NCBI GenBank assembly: GCA_963770875.1
Contig: CAVYRE010000001.1
Location: 148,064 to 212,063, forward strand
DNA length: 64,000 nt
Origin: an uncultured Chloroflexia bacterium
GTDB lineage: Bacteria > Chloroflexota > Limnocylindria > QHBO01
Reading direction: 5' to 3'
Shown: piece by piece, positions 7,895-48,862 of the stretch
How positions within the stretch are numbered: position 1 is the first letter of the stretch
How the letters are laid out: the number at the start of each line of letters is the position of its first letter
Notes under the pieces: generated by a model
Told to the model about the DNA's origin: nothing
The model's input: only the letters and a program-made list of their open reading frames with translations
Database searches by the model: none
Made by a program: the position numbers and the translations under genes

Positions 7895-10087
7895 ATGAGC
7901 GCCCAGGCGGCCCGGTTCGTGATCGACGGCGAGCGGCTGCCCTTCGAGCCCGGCGACAGCGTGGCGGTGGCCCTGGTCCGGGCGGGCGAGCACCCCCTCC
8001 ACGGCGGGACGCTCTGCCTCGCCGGCGACTGCGGCAACTGCGTCGCCGAGGTGGATGGGATCGCGTACGTCCGCACCTGCCTGACCCCGGCACGCGCCGA
8101 CCTCGAGGTGCGCCGCCATCCCGCCGTTGGAGCGCCCCCGTGGCGCCCGCCAGACGAGCGGGCGCGGCACATCGCGGTGCGCCACGAGGAGGCGGAGGTC
8201 GTGGTGATCGGCGGCGGGCGAAGCGGTCGCGCAGCAGCCGGCGAGACCGAGGGCCGAACGACGGTTCGGCTGAACTCCGGGGATGGGGCCGAGGTGGTCG
8301 CGGTCTACGCCGGTCCAACCGTCATCGCGCGGACGCCGGAGGGGATGCTGCACATCCGGGCGCGAGAGGTGGTGATCGCGACCGGCGCGGCGGAGATCCA
8401 GCCCGTCTGCGAGGGGAATCGGCTCGAGGGGCTCGTCACCGCCCGGGCGGCGCGCCAGCTGGATCGGGCGGGAGTCGATCTCGGCGTGGCCGTCGCGGTG
8501 GGGGAGGCACCCGAGGGGGTCCCGTGCACCTCGCTGTCTGGCGACCTGGTGCGGATCGAGGGGGAGGGGCGCGTGACCGGGGTCGTGACCCGGGACCACG
8601 GCCGCGAGATGACGACGCCCTGCGACACGCTGATCCTCGGCCTCGGGCGCGCCCCGCGCGACGTGCTGGCGCGGATGGCCGGCAACGTCCCGGTGCGCGT
8701 GGTCGGTTCGGCGGCCGAGACGTTCCCGCTCCCGCCGGCGCCGACGAGCGGGGTCGTCTGCCCGTGCGCCGGCGTCACGGTCGAGGACCTCGAGGGGGTC
8801 TGGACGCGCGGCTTCAACGAGCTCGAGCTGGTGAAGCGGGCGAGCCTGGCGGGGACCGGCACGTGCCAGGGTGCCGTCTGCCTGCCCCACGTGCGCGCCT
8901 GGATCGCGGCAAAGACCGGCATCGCCCCAGATCCCTTCACCGCGCGCCCGGCATCGCGCCAGATCACCCTGGGCGAGGCGTCGGCCGATTTCCACATCGA
9001 CGCGTTCCGCCGCACCGCGCTCCACGACGAGCACGTCGCGCTGGGTGCCCGCATGGACCGCTTCGGGGGCTGGTGGCGCCCCTGGCACTACGGCGACCAC
9101 CTCGCCGAGTATCGCGCCGTGCGGACCGCCGTCTCTCTCGGCGACGTCAGCACCCTTGGCAAGTTCGTCGTGGCCGGCCCCGATGCGGTCGAGTTCCTCC
9201 AGCGCCTCTACCCGACCGACGTCTCCACCATCCGGATCGGCCGCTCGCGCTACGCGCTCCTCCTCAACGAGCGCGGCCATGTCATCGACGACGGGATGAT
9301 CTGCCGCGAGGCGGAGGACCGCTTCGTGCTCACCTTCACCACGGGCGGGGCGGGCAACGCCGAGATGTGGATGCGCGACTGGATCGAGACGTGGGACCTG
9401 AACGTGCTCCTGCTCGACCGGACGATGTCGCTGGCAGCGATCAACGTCACCGGCCCGCGCGCCGCGGAGCTCCTCGCCCGGGTCGGCCTCGCGGAGCCGC
9501 CGCGCTTCCTCCAGCACCTCCGCGCCGATGTCGCCGGCGTCCCGTCCCACGTCATGCGCCTCAGCTTCACCGGCGAGGCCTCGTTCGAGCTGCACCACCC
9601 GGTCGACCGGTCGGTCGAGCTGTGGCGCGCCCTGATGGCCGCGGGGAAGGACCTCGGCATTGCGCCGCACGGCCTGCAGGCGCTCTTCGCGCTGCGGCTC
9701 GAGAAGGGGCACGTGATCATCGGCATGGACACCGAGCTCGACACGACGCCGCGCCGCCTTGGCATGGACTGGGCCGTGAACATGGAGAAGCCCTTCTTCG
9801 TCGGGCACGAGGCGCTGGCCCGCACCGCGCAGCTCGAGGATCGGCGCCGCCTGGTCGGCCTGACCATGGCCGATGCCGCGCCCACCGAGGGGAGCCCAAT
9901 CTGGTCCGACGGCGACGTCATCGGTCATGTCACCTCGTCGTTCACCTCGCCGAGCGTCGGCCGCGCGGTGATGCTGGGCTGGCTGAAGCGCGCCCCCTTC
10001 CCGGACCGCGTCGAGATCGACGGGCGCCCCGCCCACGTCGCCGCTCCGCCCTTCTACGACCCCGAGGGCCTCCGTGCGCGCGCCTGA
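7895..10087 (+). CDS. soxA: sarcosine oxidase alpha subunit family protein (short form, 730 aa)
   Basis: N-terminal 2Fe-2S-like CLAGDCGNC, NAD/FAD Rossmann VVVIGGGRSGRAAAGE, C-terminal GcvT/aminomethyltransferase fold (GDHLAEYRAVRTAVSLGDVSTLGKFVVAGPDAVEFLQRL). Confidence 0.75.
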   Translation: MSAQAARFVIDGERLPFEPGDSVAVALVRAGEHPLHGGTLCLAGDCGNCVAEVDGIAYVRTCLTPARADLEVRRHPAVGAPPWRPPDERARHIAVRHEEAEVVVIGGGRSGRAAAGETEGRTTVRLNSGDGAEVVAVYAGPTVIARTPEGMLHIRAREVVIATGAAEIQPVCEGNRLEGLVTARAARQLDRAGVDLGVAVAVGEAPEGVPCTSLSGDLVRIEGEGRVTGVVTRDHGREMTTPCDTLILGLGRAPRDVLARMAGNVPVRVVGSAAETFPLPPAPTSGVVCPCAGVTVEDLEGVWTRGFNELELVKRASLAGTGTCQGAVCLPHVRAWIAAKTGIAPDPFTARPASRQITLGEASADFHIDAFRRTALHDEHVALGARMDRFGGWWRPWHYGDHLAEYRAVRTAVSLGDVSTLGKFVVAGPDAVEFLQRLYPTDVSTIRIGRSRYALLLNERGHVIDDGMICREAEDRFVLTFTTGGAGNAEMWMRDWIETWDLNVLLLDRTMSLAAINVTGPRAAELLARVGLAEPPRFLQHLRADVAGVPSHVMRLSFTGEASFELHHPVDRSVELWRALMAAGKDLGIAPHGLQALFALRLEKGHVIIGMDTELDTTPRRLGMDWAVNMEKPFFVGHEALARTAQLEDRRRLVGLTMADAAPTEGSPIWSDGDVIGHVTSSFTSPSVGRAVMLGWLKRAPFPDRVEIDGRPAHVAAPPFYDPEGLRARA

Positions 10088-10448
10088 GCCGCTGACCGGC
10101 ATCCGCGTGGTTGCCGCGCCGGCCACGCTCGATGCCCTGACCTGGCCCGATGGCGTGGCCGCCCTCCGTTTCGCCGCGGACGACCTCTTCGCGCTGGGAG
10201 CCACGAAGGCCGAGCGGGCCGACGCGATCGTCGAGGACGAGCGCGGATTCGTCGGCTGGTGGCTCTCCCTCGAAGATCTGGACGACCTCGTCCTGGGGCA
10301 CGTCGACTGGCCACTCCCCGAAACGTGGCCGGCGCTGGCCCAGGGGCTGATCGCCGGGGTGCCCGCCAAGCTCTGGCTCACGAACGATCGCGTGCTGCTG
10401 CTCACCACGGCCGCGTACGCCCACGAGCTGATGGATCGGCTGCCATGA
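10074..10448 (+). CDS. putative sarcosine oxidase gamma-like small subunit
   Basis: Position between soxA-like and soxB with overlaps at both ends; 124 aa, shorter than canonical SoxG, assignment by context only. Confidence 0.35.
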   Translation: MRAPEPLTGIRVVAAPATLDALTWPDGVAALRFAADDLFALGATKAERADAIVEDERGFVGWWLSLEDLDDLVLGHVDWPLPETWPALAQGLIAGVPAKLWLTNDRVLLLTTAAYAHELMDRLP

Positions 10449-11653
10449 ACGAGTTCGTCGAGACCCTGCTCGACCTCGAGTGGCACGCGCCCAAGCGCTC
10501 GTACGACGTGGTCATCATCGGCGCCGGTGGCCATGGCCTGGCGACCGCCTACTACCTCGCCACGCGCCACGGGATCACGAGCGTCGCGGTGCTGGAGGCC
10601 GACTACATCGGCTCGGGCAACAGCGGCCGGAACACGACGATCATCCGGGCCAACTACGGGATCCCCGAATCGGTCCGCTTCTACCAGCACAGCGTCGACC
10701 TGTACGCGACCCTGGAGGAGGAGACCGGGGCGATGATCATGCACGCCACCAAGGGGCTGCTGTGGCTGGCGCACACCGAGATGGCGATGCGCGCCGAGCG
10801 CTCCCGCGCCCTCATGAACCAGGCCTGCGGCGCCGAGACGGTGACGATCACGCCGGAGGAGGCGAAACAGCTCTGCCCCGCGCTCGACCTGACCGGCGGC
10901 GGCCGCTACCCGGTGCTGGGCGGCTCGTACCACCCCGGCGGCGCGACGGCACGCCACGACCGCGTGGTGTGGGCGTATGCCCAGGGGGCGATGCGGCGCG
11001 GCGTCGACATCCTGCCCCACACCCCGGTCACTGGCCTGCTGCGGGACGGCGGTCGGGTGGTCGGGGTCGAGACCGATGCCGGACCGATCTCCGCCGGCGT
11101 GGTCCTCAGCGCGGTCGGCGGCAACGTCACGACCGTGGCGGCGATGGCCGACCTGCGCCTCCCGATCCGCACCCACCCACTCCAGGCCCTCGTCACGAAC
11201 GCCTACGCCCAGGGCTTCGGGCCGATCGTCGCCTCCTCCGAGCTCCTCTGCTACGTCTCGCAGACGGCCCGCGGCCAGATGCTGATGGGCGCCGAGTTCG
11301 ACTCGCAGCCCTCGTACTCGCGCCAGTCCTCGTACGAGTTCCTGCAGAGCGTCTCGGCCAAGGTGATCCACCTGCTGCCATTCCTGCGCGACCTGCGGGT
11401 GTTGCGCACCTGGGCCGGCATCTGCGACATCAGCCCCGACTACAGCCCGATCATGGGCTTCACCGGGATCGACGGCCTGCTGATCACCACCGGCTGGGGG
11501 ACGTGGGGCTTCAAGGCGATCCCCGCCGGGGGCGAGGCGATGGCCGAGCTGATCGCCACGGGCGCCACGCCAACGCTGATCGCCTCGTTCGGCCTGGAAC
11601 GATTCGCCGCCGACCACGCCATGGCCGACCAGGGATCGGCGGGGACCCGCTGA
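10445..11653 (+). CDS. soxB: sarcosine oxidase beta subunit
   Basis: MNEFVETLLDLEWHAPKRSYDVVIIGAGGHGLATAYYLA... classic SoxB N-terminus; start at ATG overlapping upstream stop (ATGA); upstream part of track ORF 10259.. is junk. Confidence 0.85.
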   Translation: MNEFVETLLDLEWHAPKRSYDVVIIGAGGHGLATAYYLATRHGITSVAVLEADYIGSGNSGRNTTIIRANYGIPESVRFYQHSVDLYATLEEETGAMIMHATKGLLWLAHTEMAMRAERSRALMNQACGAETVTITPEEAKQLCPALDLTGGGRYPVLGGSYHPGGATARHDRVVWAYAQGAMRRGVDILPHTPVTGLLRDGGRVVGVETDAGPISAGVVLSAVGGNVTTVAAMADLRLPIRTHPLQALVTNAYAQGFGPIVASSELLCYVSQTARGQMLMGAEFDSQPSYSRQSSYEFLQSVSAKVIHLLPFLRDLRVLRTWAGICDISPDYSPIMGFTGIDGLLITTGWGTWGFKAIPAGGEAMAELIATGATPTLIASFGLERFAADHAMADQGSAGTR

Positions 11654-34446: not shown

Positions 34447-35141
34447 GTCAAGGGCCACTCGGACGGAGCGCCAGCCAGGCGGCGGACATCCCGATCCCCA
34501 TGCCGGCCACGAAGATCGGCCAGGCAAAGGCGGTCGGCATCCCGCCGTCGAGCACCAGGGCCGGCGTTGGTCAGGAAGCTGACGATCACGATCGCACCGC
34601 CGAGCAGCAGGGCGCCCAGGTGACGCCGGTCGAATCGGACTGACAGGCCAGCGCGCAGGCGTCCCGCGCAGGCCAGGCCGAAGCCGATGAGGGCCGCGCT
34701 GACCGCGATCGGCGCCCAGACCGGGCCGGCCCAGGGAGCCGGCAGCAGGAAGAGGAGGTCCCAGGTGCCCAGGCTCGGGGGCCAGCCACTGAAGACCCAC
34801 AGCCAGGCGTAGTAGCCGATGTCCCAGGTCCCGAACACCACGGCCGCCCAGGCCAGGCGCTCGAGCGGGCTCCGTCCCGCGATCCAGGCGACGGCGCCGA
34901 TCATGACCAGCGTCGCCCCCTCGCGCCCCACCTCGATCCAGCCGAACGGGGTGACGGCGGGGGAGAGGTCGATGGGGAAGATCGAGCCGGTCGGCACGCC
35001 CAGCGCCGCCCGCAGGTAGACGACCACGGCCGATTCGACGTAGGCCATCGCCACGGCGTAGAGCACGGTCCCCGCGGTCAATCCGAGGGGCGGAAGCCAC
35101 CGGGGCGTCCGAGGCTCAGCTGTGGGCTGTGGATCGAGCAT
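34447..35141 (-). CDS. hypothetical integral membrane protein, frame disrupted near 34557
   Basis: After ...LLGGAIVIVSFLTNA the protein continues in the -1 frame as ...LVLDGGMPTAFAWPIFVAGMGIGMSAAWLALRPSGP; the 37443-37530 fragment is homologous to this tail. Confidence 0.5.
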
Positions 35142-40732: not shown

Positions 40733-42685
40733 TCAAGAATCCCCACGAGAATGAGCCCAACTGCCCCGACAACGCCCAACCAGCTCCGTCCCAGCGGAAG
40801 TTCGTAGGACGACCGTGATACTCGCGACGAGGATCAGCGGAGTAATTGCCCAATAGACTGCGGCGCCAATCCAACCAGCCCAACGGCGGGCGCGGCCGTC
40901 AATCTCGAGGTCATGGCGCCTAAGCGCTTCAATCGCGTTCGTAGCGGCAGCCTCGGCACTTGCGGTCTTCAGGTCGGCCTCTGCGCGAAGCGCATTGATG
41001 CGCACTTCATAGCTTGCGCCTAGCTCGTCGAGCTCAAAGTCCGCGCGTGCCTTGTAATCGGCGATGACTCGGTCGACGACCTCATCAAGCGTGCCCGCGT
41101 CCACGTCTTCCGGGTCGTCGTCGGGTTCTGCGGTGCGAAGGATCCTGTCCGAGACACTGGAGACGATAATTGCTGTCACCTGGTCGGGTGACAATCGATC
41201 TGCCTTGCGTAATTCATCAAGGTGCGCGAGGAATCGCCTCCACATCCTCGCCGAGGGTCGCATGGCCGCGGAGCAGAGAGCCACCAGCTGGCGGATTTGG
41301 TACTCGGAGCTCGCCACTGGCCTCTTCAGCCATGCAAGGTTGGCGAGTGCTCGAATGTGGACAATTGGGGGGACGCCCCCCTCCTTCTCGTCCTCCTCCC
41401 ACCAAACCGTTGTGTTCGTAATGACAAGGGGCGACGCGGTGGCAAAGACTACCCTCGCATCTTCAATTCGATAGGAACGGTGGCCCGCACGGAGGGTGAG
41501 CACTCCTGCAACAGAATCGACATCGTGTTCGACCCGAGGCTCCGCGATGTCATGTGTTCGTGGATCAGCTAATCGGCTTGCGAGCTTGGCTTCATCTTGT
41601 GTGTATCGAGCGACGTGTTGTGGCGCACGCCTGATGGTTAACCCCGCGGATTGAATCTCGCCTTCAAGCAACGCAGACATTTCCTGAACGTCGCTTGGCG
41701 CGTACCGTTGCGTCAGGAAATGTCGAGCCATTGACGAAGGACGAAGACTTTGTCGGCCGACCGAGGTGGCCAACTTGTCCTGGTACATCCGCAGAATCCG
41801 TTGGATCTCCTGCACGGTCTTATCGAACACCATGCAACGGATGCCGCTCGCCGCAAGGAGATCAATCGTGTCGCGCATCATCAGCCGCGGCGCAGTTCCT
41901 TCATACCCAAGCGCCTGACGCACTAGAACGGAGTCAAATACGACCGTCAGATCGACAAATCGGCGTGAGACCTCGTTGATGTCTGGCAGGAATGCGGCGT
42001 GGTAGAGGACGAGACCTTCGAGTAATCCCTGCAAGACTCCCTTGAGGCCGCGGTCCTGCTCAACCGTCTCCTCGAGGAACTGCGCAACCAGTAACGACTC
42101 GGATTTGCTGAGACCGGGCACCTCATGCTCCTCGGTCACGCCAAGAATGAGCGAAACCTGATGCTCCTCGAGGAAACGGAAAATAAGGTCGAGGGCACTC
42201 TTGGCTGTGTGCTCTAGCGTCGCGTGCTTGCGAACGTGCTCCGCAAGGGCGGCTCCTAGGCGAAGCTGCCCTGCCTCGACTGCCGCCTTGGTTTCCGAGA
42301 CATCCGGGGCCGAGAGGTCCTTGCCCGGACTGACCCTGAACCTCCCCGCATCTCTCTCTAGAATCCCGCGCCGAGCGGCGCGTTTCAGAAGGGTGCTGAC
42401 AGTCTCTTGTGGCATCGCAATGCCGTGACGGGCGGCGACCCCCTCCTGGATATCCGCGACCGTGAAATATCGACTTGGTTCGACCGACACCGCATCGAGG
42501 ACCAACGGCGAGAACATGCCAAGCTGGTCCTCCCCCTCGTCCAATCGCGCCTTAAGGAATGCCACAGTTACGAGTCCGCCGGCGCCCACGCTTGGTTTCC
42601 TCTCGGTCATCGGCCGAGCCTCACCGGTGAGGTCATTCCGTTGCTCCCGGTGAGCTTCGCTCGTTATCCGGTCATCCTCATTCAT
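40733..42685 (-). CDS. large (650 aa) uncharacterized protein with C-terminal hydrophobic helix; partner of Mrr-like nuclease
   Basis: Start MNEDDR overlaps upstream stop (GATGAATGA); lower GC/codon bias; wH-like stretch FTVADIQEGVAARHGIAMPQETVSTLLKRAARRGIL; no P-loop; C-term WAGWIGAAVYWAITPLILVASITVVL. Confidence 0.7.
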   Translation of the reverse strand: MNEDDRITSEAHREQRNDLTGEARPMTERKPSVGAGGLVTVAFLKARLDEGEDQLGMFSPLVLDAVSVEPSRYFTVADIQEGVAARHGIAMPQETVSTLLKRAARRGILERDAGRFRVSPGKDLSAPDVSETKAAVEAGQLRLGAALAEHVRKHATLEHTAKSALDLIFRFLEEHQVSLILGVTEEHEVPGLSKSESLLVAQFLEETVEQDRGLKGVLQGLLEGLVLYHAAFLPDINEVSRRFVDLTVVFDSVLVRQALGYEGTAPRLMMRDTIDLLAASGIRCMVFDKTVQEIQRILRMYQDKLATSVGRQSLRPSSMARHFLTQRYAPSDVQEMSALLEGEIQSAGLTIRRAPQHVARYTQDEAKLASRLADPRTHDIAEPRVEHDVDSVAGVLTLRAGHRSYRIEDARVVFATASPLVITNTTVWWEEDEKEGGVPPIVHIRALANLAWLKRPVASSEYQIRQLVALCSAAMRPSARMWRRFLAHLDELRKADRLSPDQVTAIIVSSVSDRILRTAEPDDDPEDVDAGTLDEVVDRVIADYKARADFELDELGASYEVRINALRAEADLKTASAEAAATNAIEALRRHDLEIDGRARRWAGWIGAAVYWAITPLILVASITVVLRTSAGTELVGRCRGSWAHSRGDS

Positions 42686-43547
42686 CGACAAGGATGTCCG
42701 CTGGTTCACGAGCACTCACGCGCCGCTCGTACGTTGCATCAATCGCATTGAGAAGGTCGAGGACACTGACCCCAGCCTCGATGGCCAGGCGAGCCATGAT
42801 TTCTCCAACTTGTCGCCCGGCTACCAGAAGGATGGGGTACCCATCGTCCTGAAGCTCTCGTTGGGCTTGAAGGGAGAAGTGACCAGTCGTAACGAAAACG
42901 CCCACCCAGCCTCGATCCAGCTTCGCCGCGAGCCTCGATAATTCGGCGACACCGCTCGCCCCCGCCTGGCATTTCGCCTGCCCGGCTACGACGATTCGCA
43001 GCGGAACTGAGCTACTCCCCAGGTCAAGTCTTCCTACAAAATCGATGCCGCGGTCGCCTGAACCTCGGCTTACCCAGCCCAACCGATACAGACCGGCATG
43101 CTCGAATGAGGCCTGCGCGACCCGCTCTGCGACCGCCTCAAACCGGCTCTTTGGCCGGTTGGCATAGAAGGCGATTGTCGTTCGGAGCGCTCCCTCGGCC
43201 GTCGACCCGGCAAGCGGCCGCTGATCGCTCTCAGACAAAATCCTGTAGCTGAGGAGGCGTTGGCGAACCTGGGCCAGCGACGCTGTGCCGCGGTCAATCC
43301 ACTGCCTCCAGGATTTGGGCGCTAGCACTAGGGTCTCGGTCAGCGTTCTTGTGGAGTCTCGGCGAGCTGCGACCCACGTCCAATCGAGCAGATTGTTCTC
43401 AGAGGCGAGGCTGAGAAGTGCGCAGTCGTATCGGTAGTTGACAAACGGTCGGCCGTGCCGGTCCACTTGCACCACGCGCTCGACGCGGTCCACTAAGCCA
43501 ACTCCTCGGAAGCGGCGGTAGCCCTTAGCGCGATTCTCTTGAATCAC
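42678..43547 (-). CDS. Mrr-type PD-(D/E)xK restriction endonuclease-domain protein with unassigned N-terminal region
   Basis: C-terminal half ...GDRGIDFVGRL...RIVVAGQAKCQ...GVFVTTGHFSLQAQRE matches Mrr_cat D/(D/E)xK layout; GTG start; upstream frames open. Confidence 0.7.
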   Translation of the reverse strand: MIQENRAKGYRRFRGVGLVDRVERVVQVDRHGRPFVNYRYDCALLSLASENNLLDWTWVAARRDSTRTLTETLVLAPKSWRQWIDRGTASLAQVRQRLLSYRILSESDQRPLAGSTAEGALRTTIAFYANRPKSRFEAVAERVAQASFEHAGLYRLGWVSRGSGDRGIDFVGRLDLGSSSVPLRIVVAGQAKCQAGASGVAELSRLAAKLDRGWVGVFVTTGHFSLQAQRELQDDGYPILLVAGRQVGEIMARLAIEAGVSVLDLLNAIDATYERRVSAREPADILVDE

Positions 43548-43999
43548 GCTCTCGAAGAAGATAAGTGGGCACGCCCGTCGCCTGTCTCGGTGTCTCCTGA
43601 GGCCGAGAGGTCAAACTGATCCAGGATCGCGCGGTTTCCTGGCGTTCGATCGGGGTTCTCACTTAGGCCGGGCTTGTTGTCACCGTAGTAGCGGACGAAA
43701 CCGTTTCGCGGGTCGATCTCATCGTGCCACGGGGTCCAGTCCTATCCAGCCTTGTGCGGATTGATACCAATCAAGATTGCCGGGCGGCGCGGCCCATCCG
43801 CCGCCGAGACCACGGTAATCGCGTCGATGCCCTTCTCGAGTTGCGCCCTCCCGCATTCTTGAGCCCCGGCCACTGTGGCCACCGCGTCGCCGCGAAGAAG
43901 CTCTCCAGCTCACCCTCAGATCGCTCAGCGATCTGCTCAGGGGCGGGCTTCGGGTACCGGTAGGTGTCATGCAGTCGCAGCACCGTGGCACTCTTCGAC
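43548..43999 (-). pseudogene. degraded coding remnants at right edge of islet
   Basis: Fragmentary frames (…WTPWHDEIDPRNGFVRYYGDNKPGLSENPDRTPGNRAILDQFDL…) interrupted by stops; may be the lost 5' part of the Mrr-like gene. Confidence 0.3.
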
Positions 44000-44915
44000 C
44001 TAACGAAGGAATCGCTCCGACGCATGCCACTCGAGAAATGCGGGATTAGGTCGAGCCTGCGGATCAACCGGCAGGCCTAGCGGTCGACCGGCGAGCGCGT
44101 AGTAGTCGCGACCGTTCTCATAGTCCTCACGGATGCGGCGACTTACTACGACCTGCATGTTTGAGCTTACGCCAAGTATCCAGCGTCGAACAGAGCATGG
44201 ACGTCCTTCCGCAAGAAGCAGGCCATTGTCAAGGCGATGCTCACCGTGCTGGGCGTAGGGCATGATGTGAGCGGCATCGAGGGCGGGTAGGGTCCGCTCG
44301 GCCGTCATGGCGCATCGGCGCTCGTAGGCATCTGTGACGGCGATGCGGAATCCGCCTTGGCCTAGCCGTGGGGCGATCAGTACCGGCGTGCCGTATCGAT
44401 CCTCGGCGATCCTGATGGCGCGAGGCTAGCAGCCGCACCCGACACCTCACGCCACACCCTGGCGCCGATCTGCATCGGCATCGCTGTACGTCTTGCCCTG
44501 GACGATGTTCGGCGCCCAGTCCTCTGGCGGCCGGACCCATCGCTCACGCGGCAGGAAGAATGGCCGGTTGAGGATCATGCAGCCGATCTCGTCGTGGGTG
44601 GCAATGATCGGCTCCTGCCTGTAGCGCTGGACGCGCGTGAGCATCTCCTCTGCGTCGCCGCCCCGTTCTTCTCCTCGAATGCTTCCCACGCGAGGTAGAT
44701 CGGGACCTTCGGTGAAGGGCCGAGCGACAAGCCACCGCCGACGAGGAACCCTCCGTCGCGAGGCGTGGAGCTTGAATAGGAAGGGGGCACCGGCAGGTAA
44801 GGGTCACCGGCGCGCGCCGAGCGCTTGGCTGCCAGAAGTTGACCTCGTCAAGATCCGGGCGCGCCGCTAGAAATCGATACCAGTCGCAGTCGGTGATTCC
44901 GATCCAGAACCGCAT
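44000..44915 (-). pseudogene. HNH endonuclease family gene with >=2 frame disruptions
   Basis: N-part MRFWIGITDCDWYRFLAARPDLDEVNFWQPS, middle YRQEPIIATHDEIGCMILNRPFFLPRERWVRPPEDWAPNIVQGKTYS, C-part LPALDAAHIMPYAQHGEHRLDNGLLL (HNH motif) in three different frames. Confidence 0.55.
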
Positions 44916-45026
44916 GGTGGCTCCATCGTAGGTCGCGTTTGTGGGCACGGGAAGACGGGATAGGTCCCATCGGGTCTGGGGCGCTAGTGCAGCTATGGCA
45001 AGTGGCCAATGGCAGAGTAGCCGCCC

Positions 45027-46014
45027 ATGAAAGCCGCCGTCCGATACCGATATGGGACGCCCGACGTCGTTCGGGTCGAGGAGCTGCGACACGCCGGTCC
45101 CGGCCGAGGGCGAGGTGCTCGTTCGGACTCCGGGCCGCATCGGTCAACCGGGCTGACCTCGACGACATCCAGCCGCGCCCCCAGTTCGTGCGCCTCTTCA
45201 TGGGGCTGCGGGCACCGCGCCAGCCCCAGATCGGCGTCGACGTCGCCGGGGTGGTCGAGGCGGTGGGCGCCGGCGTGACCCGCTTCCGCCCCGGTGACGA
45301 GGTCTTCGCCGACCTGTTCGCCGCCGGCCACGTGGGCGCCTTCGCCGAGTACGTGTCCGCGCCGGAGAAGGCCTTCCAGCCGATGCCGCCGGGCATGAGC
45401 TTCACCGACGCCGCCACCCTGCCGCACTCGGCGATCCTGGCGCTCCAGGGGCTGCGGACCCGCAAGGGCCGGACCGTGCAGGCGGGGGAGAAGGTGCTGG
45501 TGGTGGGCGCATCGGGCAATGTCGGGCCGTTCGCGGTCCAGATCGCGAAGGCGCTGGGCGCGGAGGTGACCGGCGTCTGCAGCCGCGCCAAGGTCGACTT
45601 CGTGCGCTCGCTCGGGGCCGATGAGGTCCTCAGCTACACCGACGTCAACTTCACGCGCATGGGCCGGCAGTGGGACTGGATCCTCGACACCGATTCGCAC
45701 CACTCGATCTTCGCCGTGCGCCGCGCGCTGCGGCCCGGCGGGCAGGTACGTGACGCTGGGCGGGGAGGCCGGGCCGCTGTTCGGGGCGCTGCTGGGCGGG
45801 CCGCTCATCGGCCTGTTCAGCGACAAGCACCTGGGCCTGATGATCTGGTGGAAGCCGATGCACCCGCCCGACGTGGATCGGCTCAAGGAGCTGATCGCGG
45901 CGGGGAAGGTGCGGCCGGTGATCGACCGGACGCTACCCGCTGAGCGAGATCGTGGATGCGCTGAAGTGGGTCAACGACGGCCACGCCCGCGGCAAGGTGG
46001 TCATCACGTTCTAG
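45027..46014 (+). pseudogene. zinc-type alcohol dehydrogenase/quinone oxidoreductase (MDR family) with three frame disruptions
   Basis: MKAAVRYRYGTPDVVRVEEL... / ...ASVNRADLDD...GAFAEYVSAPE...VLVVGASGNVGPFAVQIAKALGAEV... / ...GGRYVTLGGEAGP... / ...PLSEIVDALKWVNDGHARGKVVITF* across three frames. Confidence 0.6.
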
Positions 46015-46169
46015 GGCGTGGACGGCCGACCCAGCCGTGGCTGCTGTCGGAGCCTGGTCGTGCAGGTGTGCTGCACGAACGCACGAGTGCACGATGAGCC
46101 TTGACGGCGCGAGCCTCCCCTGAATTCGGCTAAGCCGCCGATAAGCGGTCGTCGCTACGGTGCGGCGGC

Positions 46170-46442
46170 ATGGAGTTCGAGTGGGATCCACGGAAGGCGG
46201 AGCAGAACGTCCGGAAGCACGGGGTCGCCTTTGAGGATGCCATCACCATCTTCGCGGACCCCGACGAACTCATGATCTATGACCCGGACCATTCCTTGAC
46301 CGAAGATCGGTTCGTGAGCGTCGGCAGGTCCAGGTCTGGCCGGCTGTTGGTGGTGGGCTACACCGAGCGCGGGAGTAAGATCCGAATCATCTTCGCGAGG
46401 CGGGCAACAGCACCCGAGATGCTTGACTATGAAGAAGTCTGA
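46170..46442 (+). CDS. brnT: BrnT-family ribonuclease toxin
   Basis: MEFEWDPRKAEQNVRKHGVAFEDAITIFADPDELMIYDPDHS...RIIFARRA. Confidence 0.8.
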   Translation: MEFEWDPRKAEQNVRKHGVAFEDAITIFADPDELMIYDPDHSLTEDRFVSVGRSRSGRLLVVGYTERGSKIRIIFARRATAPEMLDYEEV

Positions 46443-46620
46443 TAGCGAGACGCGGGAGGAGTACGACTTCCGCACCGGAACCCGAGGCCACCATCATCGC
46501 AAGGTGGCTGGGGAGGGCCGGTTGGTCCGCCTCGACCCTGATGTGGCGGTGCGGTTTCCGACGTCTGAAGCAGTGAACGAGGCCCTGCGGTCCCTGCCTC
46601 GTCGCCGACCCCAGGACTGA
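46423..46620 (+). CDS. brnA: BrnA-family antitoxin
   Basis: Small protein overlapping brnT 3' end, EEYDFRTG... typical BrnA context. Confidence 0.65.
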   Translation: MTMKKSDSETREEYDFRTGTRGHHHRKVAGEGRLVRLDPDVAVRFPTSEAVNEALRSLPRRRPQD

Positions 46621-46698
46621 ACGCCGACCTCGGCGGTCAATGGGACGGCCAGCCCCCTCTCCCTGACAGGATTACGGCAAATCGGGAATACTGCGCCA

Positions 46699-46974
46699 AT
46701 GGCCAATCCCCGAACGGTTCAGATCCGGGGTCGCGGCACCGTGACCCTGCCGGCCAGGATCCGCGAGCGATACGACCTCGCCGACGGTGACCCGCTGACG
46801 CTGGTCGACCTCGATGGCGCCATTCTGCTCTCGCCCAAGACGAGCGTCGTCGACAAGCTGTCGGCGGAGATCGAGTACCTGATGAAGGGATCGGGCCTGA
46901 GCCTCGACGAGCTGCTCGGTGGGCTGCGCGAAGAGCGCGCGCGGTACCACGCCGACCGCCTTGAGCGCCGATAG
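46699..46974 (+). CDS. AbrB/MazE/SpoVT-family antitoxin
   Basis: VQIRGRGTVTLPARIRERYDLADGDPLTL swapped-hairpin motif. Confidence 0.7.
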   Translation: MANPRTVQIRGRGTVTLPARIRERYDLADGDPLTLVDLDGAILLSPKTSVVDKLSAEIEYLMKGSGLSLDELLGGLREERARYHADRLERR

Positions 46975-47338
46975 GCCTCGGGCCCGCCTTCGAATCTGCC
47001 TGGACGCCGATACCCTATTCGCGCGGGCCGCGTCGAACACGGGGGCGAGCCACCTGATCCTCCAATTGGGCGAGCTTGGGATCATCGAGATCGGCGTGCC
47101 GGAAGCAGGCCAGAGGGGAGGCTGAGCGCAACCTCGCCACCAAGCTGCCCGCCTCCCTGCCGGCGTTTCGGGCCTTGCTGGACGCCTGCTGCATCGGCCT
47201 GCCGATGGCGCCGGAGGCGGTATCGGTCGCCATCGCAGGGTCCGGCGAAGCCGACGCGAAGAACGCCCCAATCCTCGCGGCAGCTGAGTGACTTCGTCGA
47301 GGCACTGCGGGGCGAGCTGCTGCAGCTGGGACGCTAGG
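46961..47338 (+). pseudogene. PIN-domain (VapC-like) toxin remnant with frame disruptions
   Basis: RICLDADTLFARAAS...HLILQLGELGIIEIGVPEA in one frame, ...AFRALLDACCIGLPMAPEAVSVAIAGSGEADAKNAPILAAAE in another. Confidence 0.4.
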
Positions 47339-48782
47339 TCGCCAGGTGCTCCGACAGGTGCTCGGCCATCATGATCGTGATGATGTGCGGGAAGCCCGAT
47401 GGCGGCTCCGGCATGATCGAGGCGTCGACGACGGCCAGGCCCGCCACGCCGTGGACCTTCCCGCGTGCGTCGACCACCGCGCCCTGATCGGGCGATGGCC
47501 CCATGGCACACGTCCCGACCACGTGGGGGATCGAGTAGGCGTTCTCGATGATGGCCCGATGGAGCCCCTCGGCGCTTCCCGGATCCGGTGGCGCTGGTTC
47601 CCTGGCGAGCCGCCGGATCTCGGGACGGTTGGCAAGCTCCAGCCCGCGCCGATAGCCCTCGGCCAGCCGCTCCATGTCGGCCGGCTCGTCGGCGGGGTTC
47701 GGCAGCGTGATGCGTGGCGGGTCGCCTGGGTCGGCTGAGCGGAGGCGCACGGAACCGCGCGCCCGTGGCCGCATGAGGATCGGGTCGAGGTAGAAGTCGC
47801 CCTCCTCGTCAGCCGGATCCTGCAACCAGAAGAGCATGTCAGGGCCGCCTGCGGGCGCCGTCGAGCTGCGCCAGGTCGCGAGCGAGTGCAGGATCGGCCC
47901 GTCCGTGCCGCGGCCGCGCCAGCCTGAGTCGAGGTCGACGCCGATGTGGTCCGCGAGGTTCGCGCCCACGCCCGGTAGGTCGACCCGGATCTCGATGCCG
48001 ACCTCGAGCAGGTGCTCCGCCGGCCCGATCCCCGAGCGCATCAAGATCGCCGGGCTGCCGTAAGTGCCGGCCGAGAGGATCACCGTGTCCGCCCGGATCT
48101 CGGTGCCATCGAGGAGCTGCACGCCGGTCGCCCGGTCGCCGTCGAGGAGCACCCGCGCCACCGTGGAGTCGGACCGCACCGCCAGGGCAGGCAGCGCGAG
48201 GTCGAGCGGCAGATAGCCGTCGAGCGAGGTCACGCGCTGGCCGTGGCGCGAGCTCATCGGCATCGGGCCGACGCCCACTGACGACCCGTCATTGTGATCC
48301 TCGACCGCGGGGTAGCCAAGGGCAGCGAAGGCCTCGAGGGCGGAGGCATGGATCTCGGAGGGCTGCTGGTCGGGGTAGCGGGTGATCGGGATCGGGCCAT
48401 CCTGGCCGTGCAGGGGACTGGTTCCGAACTCCAGGTCCGCCTCGAGGCGCCGGAAGGCGGGCAGGACGTCGGCGAAGCTCCAGCCCGGGTTTCCCGCCGC
48501 GGCCCAGGCGTCGAAGTCGGTTGCGGCGCCGCGCACGGCGAAGCGGGTCAGCCAGGAGGTTCCGCCCATCATCCGAATGCGGCGCAGCGGCTTGGTCGCG
48601 CCGGTGGCGTCGGGCTCGGACTCGTAGCCCCAGGTCGGCGGCGTGGCCAGGCGCCAGCCGTCGCGGTAGTCGTCGGGCGTGGCGGCGCGGAGGTCCTGGC
48701 CGGCCTCCAGGAGGAGGACGCGTCGGTCCCCCTGCTCGGCGAGGCGGCGTGCAAGCACGCAGCCGGCCGCGCCGGCGCCCAC
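47334..48782 (-). CDS. GMC family oxidoreductase (choline dehydrogenase-like)
   Basis: [15 protein letters not shown]...; C-terminal GMC signature GTCAMGP...; in-frame upstream codons encode FDVIVV without a canonical start, so true start uncertain. Confidence 0.75.
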
Positions 48783-48862
48783 GACGATGACATCGAACCC
48801 CTCGCGCGGGCCGCGCCGAAGCGGATGGCGAATGGCGTCTCGTCCAGGATCGGCGGTTGAGC

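Follow-up and report, generated by a model that had tools for sequence, protein, structure and literature searches.

The EVE-HNH enzyme VcaM4I (PDB 6YEX) is a modification-dependent endonuclease in which a PUA-superfamily reader is joined to an HNH domain (Lutz et al. 2019, PMC6765204; Pastor et al. 2021, PMC7897488), and enzymes of the MspJI/AspBHI family (Type IIM / Type IV; PDB 4F0P, 4OC8) combine an RE_AspBHI_N domain with an Mrr_cat domain. In a stretch of 64,000 nucleotides from an uncultured Chloroflexia bacterium (the window), a gene resembling each of these enzymes lies beside an MDR oxidoreductase gene, and all three reading frames are broken (Table 1). The family of the window's HNH gene shares with VcaM4I-type enzymes a C-terminal HNH and a PUA-like N-terminal barrel, but has no sequence-level match to EVE, and its closest named fold is ASCH. 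The MspJI-like gene has the two-domain architecture of its family, but its frame is broken three times and it is coupled by an overlap to an upstream HNH gene. To our knowledge, such an overlapping HNH gene is no part of the characterised MspJI/AspBHI enzymes.

A further comparison concerns the assembly. Two studies describe a need for indel correction in Nanopore-type metagenome assemblies (PMC9262707; PMC12313526). With the indel errors of Nanopore-only assemblies the window shares conserved ORFs that are split by single-base indels, patchily and across several MAGs of one collection, but most of its lesions lie outside the long homopolymers stressed in PMC9262707. We consider it likely that the three genes are ordinary and probably functional, and that the 13 indels and the stop codon are long-read consensus errors, not mutations of the organism. 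The genes otherwise look like working genes, and therefore what an earlier note on this DNA had called a nuclease graveyard is most likely a poor long-read assembly. Its source would be a long-read consensus left unpolished over this stretch, where read support would have been low or mixed; we infer both this low-coverage cause and the platform that produced the 863,408-bp source contig.

Table 1 Features of the locus in window coordinates
Feature	Position	Strand	Remarks
MspJI/AspBHI-family modification-dependent restriction endonuclease (predicted)	42678..44025	-	~448 codons, broken frame
PUA-like (ASCH/EVE-type fold) + HNH_2 nuclease (predicted)	44000..44915	-	303 codons, 7 single-base frameshifts
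Intergenic, between divergently transcribed HNH and MDR genes	44916..45026		poor alignment with relatives L019 and L023
MDR oxidoreductase (quinone-oxidoreductase-like, zinc-type ADH superfamily)	45027..46014	+	327 codons, four 1-base insertions
Lesion patch	43597..45930		13 single-base indels (8 insertions, 5 deletions) + 1 nonsense codon, 2334 nt

Two overlapping nuclease genes

Alignment of frame-corrected proteins to databases, which the earlier note had proposed, recovered full-length homologues at 82–94% identity for the HNH (303 aa), MspJI-like (448 aa) and MDR (327 aa) proteins. The note had described an HNH nuclease whose parts lie in different frames, and frameshift-aware alignment to the closest homologues bore this out, locating seven frameshifts and no in-frame stop: +1 near 44795, 44757, 44472 and 44215, and −1 near 44650, 44413 and 44175. 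Homologues of this protein number 7961 at E ≤ 1e-10, the best with 79–86% identity over 100% of the length, and 250 of 300 positions are identical to the homologue P0001. Pfam places an HNH_2 domain on the corrected protein (E 2.1e-08), the HNH half matches PDB 6yex_A (E 3.4e-06), and the invariant residues H215, H225, N229 and H238 (numbering of alignment A1) are retained in the window copy.

Residues 1–165 of P0001 form a PUA-like barrel in an AlphaFold model (pLDDT ~90). Searched against the PDB with Foldseek, this N-terminal model matched ASCH (E 5e-4, probability 1.0), EVE (2eve, 1.2e-2) and McrB-N (6n0s, 1.8e-2). On fold resemblance alone, the protein is predicted to be a PUA-superfamily sensor domain fused to an HNH nuclease; its resemblance in fold to EVE-HNH enzymes is moderate (Foldseek E ~5e-4, TM ~0.6 to target) and the HNH part of the model is of low confidence. 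The HNH half also aligns with the last 120 positions of the model for phosphorothioate-dependent SBD-HNH enzymes (NCBIfam NF045808 PT-DNA_restrict; ScoMcrA-type; E 4e-18), but with a score of 65.5 it falls far short of the 180 cut-off, and the N-terminal sulfur-binding domain is unmatched.

The first ~150 codons of the gene containing the 'Mrr-like' ORF 42678..43547 lie in the region 43548..44025. The proposal that the fragments at 43548–43999 are the lost N-terminus of that gene was therefore right, as frameshift-aware alignment placed them in the same MspJI-like gene, whereas the supposed live nuclease module next door is no separate gene but the C-terminal 289 codons of this broken one. On the stitched protein, Pfam finds the SRA-like reader RE_AspBHI_N (PF18062, E 1.3e-21), which spans the 43597 frameshift and the TAG codon, and the C-terminal PD-(D/E)XK domain Mrr_cat (PF04471, E 1.3e-08). 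The catalytic region reads IDFVG...VVAGQAKC, which we take to fit the D...QxK type of PD-(D/E)XK motif. Frameshift-aware alignment gives 366 identities over 444 positions with P0252, an intact homologue that matches MspJI itself (PDB 4f0p_A, E 1e-80, residues 21–417) and mREase_II of PADLOC (7.6e-123). The lesions fall within the first 150 codons: −1 near 43854, a TAG at 43744–43742 where homologues have Ser, and −1 near 43597. We considered whether 43812–43999 might be intergenic (the gene call in relative L018 is 378 aa) and rejected this, as most homologues are ~445 aa and no stop interrupts the full frame in L018, L020 and L021.

The likely start of the MspJI-like gene, an ATG at 44025, gives a 26-nt overlap with the HNH stop. 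The two genes probably constitute an operon with overlapping reading frames and encode modification-dependent (Type IV-like) nucleases, the biochemical specificity of both being predicted. In the MspJI-like protein, the SRA-like reader would flip out a modified cytosine and the fused Mrr-type PD-(D/E)XK domain would cleave. The biology underlying the locus is modest but real, an overlapping PUA-like-HNH and MspJI-like pair that appears to comprise two different modified-DNA-sensing nucleases.

A lesion patch across three constrained genes

On the other side of the HNH gene, nucleotide alignment to the intact relatives L019, L020 and L025 placed insertions in the MDR gene at 45088 (G), 45129 (T), 45739 (C) and 45930 (A). 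The earlier note had recognized the MDR gene and its broken frame, but had counted three disruptions where there are four. Deleting the four bases yields a 327-codon ORF, including the stop, with a GC3 of 0.951, equal to that of intact native genes; the protein carries ADH_N and ADH_zinc_N_2 domains (Pfam) and is 92.7–94.5% identical in amino acids to the homologues P0132 and P0375. The short-read-style contigs L019, L023 and L025 are otherwise identical to the window in the sequence flanking the insertions, which are of a non-slippage type because no neighbouring base is duplicated. An association of insertions with CCGG (three of four in the MDR gene) was rejected as post hoc, and it fails for the HNH and MspJI-like lesions. 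Exact copies of nine possible corrected MDR proteins and of three window ORF fragments were absent from the protein collection, which is uninformative.

The patch holds 13 frameshifts in 2.33 kb where ~0.8 would be expected from the window-wide rate (Poisson P ~4e-12), a density of 5.6 per kb, or ~30 times that of the rest of the window; a local cause is therefore needed, and can only be postulated. The patch ignores gene borders, beginning inside the MspJI-like gene and running through the HNH gene (63% GC) into the native MDR gene (72% GC). To its left, no frameshift was found over 2.86 kb, and the MspJI C-terminus and the p625 protein align in one stretch to full-length relatives. To its right, none was found over ~2.9 kb except for a short split PIN-like remnant (46971–47291); the GMC gene there has 0 gaps against L018 across 1476 nt, and another assembly encodes BrnT and AbrB proteins identical to those of the window. 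The one hint of low or mixed read support is the end of a Logan contig (run ERR12037362) at ~45974, which is 44 nt to the right of the final lesion.

We looked for relaxed constraint in the three corrected genes by dN/dS, conserved residues and codon bias, and found no sign of it. Every invariant family column is kept (HNH 59/59, MspJI-like 75/75, MDR 62/62), and at columns conserved in ≥90% of members the counts (121/122, 147/158 and 167/174, respectively) are in the range of intact family members. Between the window copy and intact relatives, dN/dS is 0.10–0.11 for HNH, 0.05–0.07 for MspJI-like and 0.15–0.24 for MDR, compared with 0.08, 0.06 and 0.19 among the intact relatives themselves. 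Within the MspJI-like gene, pN is 0.102 in the lesioned N-terminal part and 0.107 in the clean C-terminal part.

These values weigh against the earlier interpretation of the locus as an old series of restriction-type pseudogenes that repeated turnover of cargo had left behind at an integration hotspot, beside a live nuclease. Such a history would account for broken frames and for corrected translations that recover homologues, and cargo near the pair does vary among relatives (see below); but old pseudogenes would not be expected to keep all invariant residues, the dN/dS of intact genes and their codon bias, nor to share one physical patch that ends inside a gene, and the nuclease taken to be live is the tail of one of the broken genes. 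We regard this history as very improbable. It is hardly credible that the frame changes regulate nuclease expression, by programmed frameshifting or by phase variation. Phase-variable restriction genes exist, but nothing at the locus points specifically to recoding, and the 13 sites are of both signs, lie outside the long homopolymers and repeats on which phase variation relies and, 45739 excepted (see below), have no counterpart in the frames of relatives.

The lesion spectrum bears on a further reading, in which both nucleases and the MDR gene were genuinely and very recently knocked out by real single-base indels, for example after the host acquired cytosine methylation that made the nucleases self-toxic, with lesions too young for substitutions to have followed. 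Its attraction is that lesion density is highest in the two nuclease genes and that one of the lesions, the TAG, is a nonsense substitution. The other 13 are all indels, however, and with almost no substitutions alongside them an indel:substitution ratio near 1:3 or higher would be needed (on the MDR terminal branch we count ~9–11 private substitutions, 6 of them synonymous, and 3–4 private indels). Spontaneous mutation in bacteria is usually substitution-dominated. Neither the non-slippage character of the insertions nor the 3' end of the MspJI-like gene suits this reading: the last ~919 nt (42678–43596) are free of lesions where 5.5 would be expected (P = 0.004), which is surprising in a gene that was already dead. 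Together with the evidence from sister MAGs and from other genes below, we judge such a recent inactivation unlikely, though not negligible. That a localized burst of indels killed both nucleases and their neighbour at once, before any substitutions accumulated, seems to us improbable; it might have followed error-prone repair at sites of repeated breakage, or an altered methylation of the host DNA that rendered the nucleases toxic.

The locus in relatives

Short-read-style contigs of relatives carry the HNH and MspJI-like pair intact; it is so in L018, L020, L021, L022 and L023, and both genes co-reside on many contigs. The pair is a conserved, usually intact module and not a series of successive arrivals, which again speaks against decay and turnover, and it is widespread in Limnocylindria-type Chloroflexota. 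In every relative examined, all HNH and MspJI-like lesion sites are intact, as are all MDR sites except 45739.

At that site the inserted base coincides exactly with a +1 in the independent JGI contig L023 (G6 versus G5), on a locally shared haplotype; the MDR gene of L023 is frameshifted there, and therefore MDR may truly be broken in some strains. The insertion at 45739 may be genuine and inherited; alternatively, mutation and error may both have a hotspot in the G-run. The coincidence favours recent inactivation, and if an indel burst had occurred, the +1 shared with L023 would point to a frameshifted allele in circulation within the population.

Comparison of the locus across relatives, a check that the earlier note had also suggested, showed that the neighbouring genes differ. 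In L018, a GMC gene adjoins the pair and the p660 gene is absent; in L020 and L021, a TIR_2 gene and a DUF72 fragment lie between MDR and HNH, with Fic/ARPP-1 downstream. Real remnants occur at the locus in the short-read-style L020 (an 85-aa DUF72 fragment and a 31-aa MDR fragment), and both these and the structural variability of the locus are points in favour of genuine inactivation. The source locus is most likely a variable toxin-antitoxin/defence neighbourhood, in which toxin-antitoxin and TIR/Fic-type genes around the pair are gained and lost. No tRNA was found, and neither the ORF list nor a Pfam scan of selected ORFs around 38–50 kb revealed an integrase or a repeat boundary; the integration hotspot invoked earlier therefore has no direct support.

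A search for an independent assembly of the same strain found none, and exact-protein searches with the 102-aa HNH fragment, the 660/625-aa protein, the 289-aa Mrr ORF and the 1027-aa protein gave no match. Differences in start codon may explain some of these failures; the 625-aa form, which is present in the cluster table, also failed.

Frameshifts elsewhere in the window and in sister MAGs

Ordinary genes of the window are frameshifted as well. Pfam domains run continuously across the stitched junctions in MFS (~26168), DUF72 (~49858), cyclase-AAA16 (~53604) and CorA (~55216) genes, and through those of a GT1 glycosyltransferase with at least three frameshifts (28.8–30.0 kb); a gene at 34560 is frameshifted in comparison with L018. 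Such continuity was not confirmed for a candidate multi-frameshift gene (15.7–17.5 kb) and a cyclase (21.8 kb). Housekeeping-type genes of the window and of sister MAGs carry the same kind of lesion as the nuclease genes, and if these were real mutations they would amount to a genome-wide collapse, which counts against recent inactivation; the frameshifts outside defence genes also speak against decay.

Consensus error, the reading we prefer, carries a caution, in that dense local patches of single-base indels in long-read MAGs can mimic clusters of pseudogenes and invite stories of defence-island turnover. Three checks separate artefact from decay: whether invariant residues are kept, how dN/dS compares with that of intact relatives, and whether the patch respects gene boundaries.

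Through the GMC gene we found 17 genome loci, at 47–75% identity, which is too low for a useful comparison of synteny. The frameshift signature is absent from short-read-style assemblies (L005, L018, L019, L020 and L025 are intact), and the GMC homologue has no frameshifts in L003, L016 and L005. In the 'MFD' Limnocylindria MAG loci L012, L013 and L015, whose names suggest that they belong to a Nanopore MAG set, the GMC homologue has 2, 1 and 5 frameshifts, respectively, all of them +1, and the five in L015 fall inside ~0.8 kb.

Broken frames and corrected products

The frames of the HNH, MspJI-like and MDR genes are broken as an earlier note had claimed, and their lesions were mapped by frameshift-aware protein-to-DNA alignment to the closest homologs, with nucleotide alignment to related contigs as a check. 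Frame-corrected translations found full-length homologs for all three genes (HNH, 83-86% identity; MspJI-like, 82-83%; MDR, 93-94.5%), which confirms the broken-gene observation and is the opposite of the outcome that the note said would refute it; the interpretation built on it is only partly supported. Its 'live' Mrr-like nuclease (ORF 42678..43547) is just the last 289 codons of the MspJI-like gene.

Features and lesions in the window
Feature	Position	Strand	Detail
MspJI/AspBHI-family gene	44025->42678	-	Pfam RE_AspBHI_N + Mrr_cat
MspJI-like lesions	-1 near 43854; TAG 43744-43742; -1 near 43597
HNH_2 protein, 303 codons	44915->44000	-	N-terminal domain + HNH half
HNH lesions	+1 near 44795, 44757, 44472, 44215; -1 near 44650, 44413, 44175
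MDR oxidoreductase, 327 codons	45027->46014	+	native GC (72%)
MDR lesions	45088, 45129, 45739, 45930		single-base insertions
Cyclase gene frameshift, candidate	about 21795		single-base
MFS transporter frameshift	about 26168		Pfam continuity
GT1 glycosyltransferase frameshifts, at least 3	28.8-30.0 kb		Pfam continuity
Membrane protein gene frameshift	34560		comparison with contig L018
DUF72 frameshift	about 49858		Pfam continuity
Cyclase-AAA16 (-TPR) frameshift	about 53604		Pfam continuity
CorA frameshift	about 55216		Pfam continuity
625/660-aa protein	40733-42715	-	intact
BrnT toxin gene	46170-46620	+	Pfam 4.7e-26
AbrB-type antitoxin gene	46699-46974	+
PIN-like remnant	46971-47291	+	too short, split over two frames

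P0252, an intact MspJI-like homolog of 448 aa, matches MspJI structure 4f0p (E 1e-80) and the PADLOC 'Type II methyl-directed restriction enzyme' (7.6e-123). The MspJI-like start overlaps the stop of the HNH gene. In the HNH homolog P0001, AlphaFold models the N-terminal domain confidently (residues 1-165, pLDDT about 90), its top PDB matches being ASCH, EVE and McrB N-terminal modified-base readers; the HNH half of the HNH_2 protein matches 6yex, an EVE-HNH enzyme entry. The predicted architecture would thus be that of the PUA-reader-plus-nuclease modification-dependent endonucleases described previously (PMC6765204, PMC7897488).

Constraint and the shape of the patch

In alignments of >100 family members, the corrected proteins kept every invariant column (HNH 59/59, MspJI-like 75/75, MDR 62/62) and missed no more of the columns conserved at >=90% than intact members did. 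For window copies against intact relatives, dN/dS was 0.15-0.24 in MDR, 0.10-0.11 in HNH and 0.05-0.07 in MspJI-like, compared with 0.19, 0.08 and 0.06 for a pair of intact relatives; by these measures, selection on the window copies of all three genes looks normal. GC3 of the corrected MDR gene is 0.951. Real decay by 13 indels should have left many substitutions and many losses of conserved residues, but private substitutions are few: the MDR terminal branch carries about 9-11 (6 synonymous), with 3-4 private indels. These tests all but exclude an old graveyard.

The lesions fall within a single physical patch (43597-45930), which runs from inside the MspJI-like gene across HNH, where GC is low, and the intergenic stretch into the high-GC MDR gene; GC is ~70% across the window, dropping to 58-65% between roughly 40 and 45 kb. 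The rest of the MspJI-like gene, 919 nt, contains no lesion, where patch density would predict 5.5 (P=0.004), and the adjoining 625-aa gene is clean. All four MDR insertions are single bases, none copying a neighbour; they are non-slippage products, and their flanks are otherwise identical to short-read-style contigs. We think it probable that a locally unpolished long-read consensus overlies an intact PUA-like-HNH and MspJI-like pair and an MDR gene.

Genuine, very recent inactivation of the genes is the main rival but, in our estimate, unlikely. Two observations speak against an artefact. The first is the insertion at 45739, the only lesion with outside corroboration: it coincides with a +1 (around 1555-1570) in the JGI contig L023, which has the local haplotype in common with the window and whose own MDR is frameshifted at the equivalent position. 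The G-run there is G6 in L023, G5 in L019, L020 and L025, and GGCGGG in the window; this may be either a real inherited lesion or a hotspot for mutation and error alike. The second is patch density, ~30 times the window background, for which a local cause has to be postulated. For the unpolished consensus, that cause would be low coverage or a mixture of strains over this stretch; sequencing platform and local depth are inferred. The one hint of it comes from run ERR12037362, whose Logan contig collinear with 45974-48062 stops 44 nt right of the last lesion.

Frameshifts beyond the patch

Codon-position GC revealed frame switches inside ordinary genes elsewhere in the window, and Pfam domains run unbroken across the stitched junctions (MFS, DUF72, cyclase-AAA16, CorA and GT1 glycosyltransferase). 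A search with the flanking GMC oxidoreductase gave relatives that were all MAGs of Chloroflexota/'Candidatus Limnocylindria'. Three 'MFD' Limnocylindria loci, L012, L013 and L015, carry 2, 1 and 5 frameshifts in their GMC homologs, all +1 (positions 10000-11400), the five in L015 falling within about 0.8 kb, which suggests a problem general to that kind of assembly; three other loci carry none. The 'MFD' names suggest that these loci belong to the published MFD set. Nanopore-only MFD assemblies received a single Medaka polishing round to cut indel errors (PMC12313526), and indels are the known weakness of Nanopore-only assemblies (PMC9262707). With constraint opposing decay, one patch crossing genes, and frameshifts in other window genes and sister MAGs, the graveyard claim fails; the same checks can be used to tell assembly frameshifts from pseudogenes.

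Frameshifts in the ordinary window genes are mostly +1. Three of the four MDR insertions (45129, 45739, 45930) and the frameshifts at 34560 and 55216 abut CCGG, a post hoc observation; the background share of MDR positions within 1 nt of such a site is about 10%. The association could reflect motif-linked (methylation-related) basecalling errors, or chance. The GTG start of GMC in L018 is GAG in the window (48801-48803, minus strand), where the next candidate is only a GTG seven codons downstream, within the Rossmann beta1-Gly motif; the GAG could reflect either a substitution error or a switch of start codon.

The neighbourhood in relatives

In contig L018 (GMC 89% nucleotide identity), GMC is directly followed by intact HNH and MspJI-like genes, beyond which the sequence resumes at the window's 40.2-40.6 kb flank; the locus lacks MDR, BrnT/BrnA, AbrB and the 625-aa gene. 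As in the window, MDR adjoins HNH in L019, L020 and L023. In L020 and L021, a TIR_2 gene and a fragment of DUF72 lie between MDR and HNH, with Fic/ARPP-1 downstream, and L025 has a PIN/MazE pair after MDR. Gene content in the neighbourhood thus varies, and this much of the note's idea survives, but the nucleases are not successive wrecks. Read from the HNH stop, the MspJI-like frame stays open in L018, L020 and L021, and cluster tables repeatedly place both genes on one contig; the pair is a conserved module in the Limnocylindria lineage, and is worth noting as such. Between strains, dS is 0.65 to about 2 for the two nuclease genes and 0.16-0.21 for MDR; high synonymous divergence is common for defence genes.

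Short-read-style relatives hold true-looking remnants, a 31-aa MDR fragment (L020 1034-1129) and an 85-aa DUF72 fragment beside the TIR_2 gene (L020 9579-9836, L021 1806-2063), so real rearrangement and decay do occur in this neighbourhood. The 625/660-aa protein, encoded directly downstream of MspJI-like where GC is lowest in the window (58-61%), has >2400 relatives in a representative library and no named match in Pfam, PADLOC or NCBIfam; in L018 its gene is missing at precisely the point where the conserved flank follows the MspJI-like stop, and so looks like a separate insertion. BrnT has MDR on one side and the AbrB/PIN pair on the other, its exact protein also occurs in independent assemblies, and the small ORF overlapping it downstream is presumably BrnA. 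The PIN-like remnant has the same ORF coordinates in the ERR12037362 contig and may therefore be a real degraded toxin.
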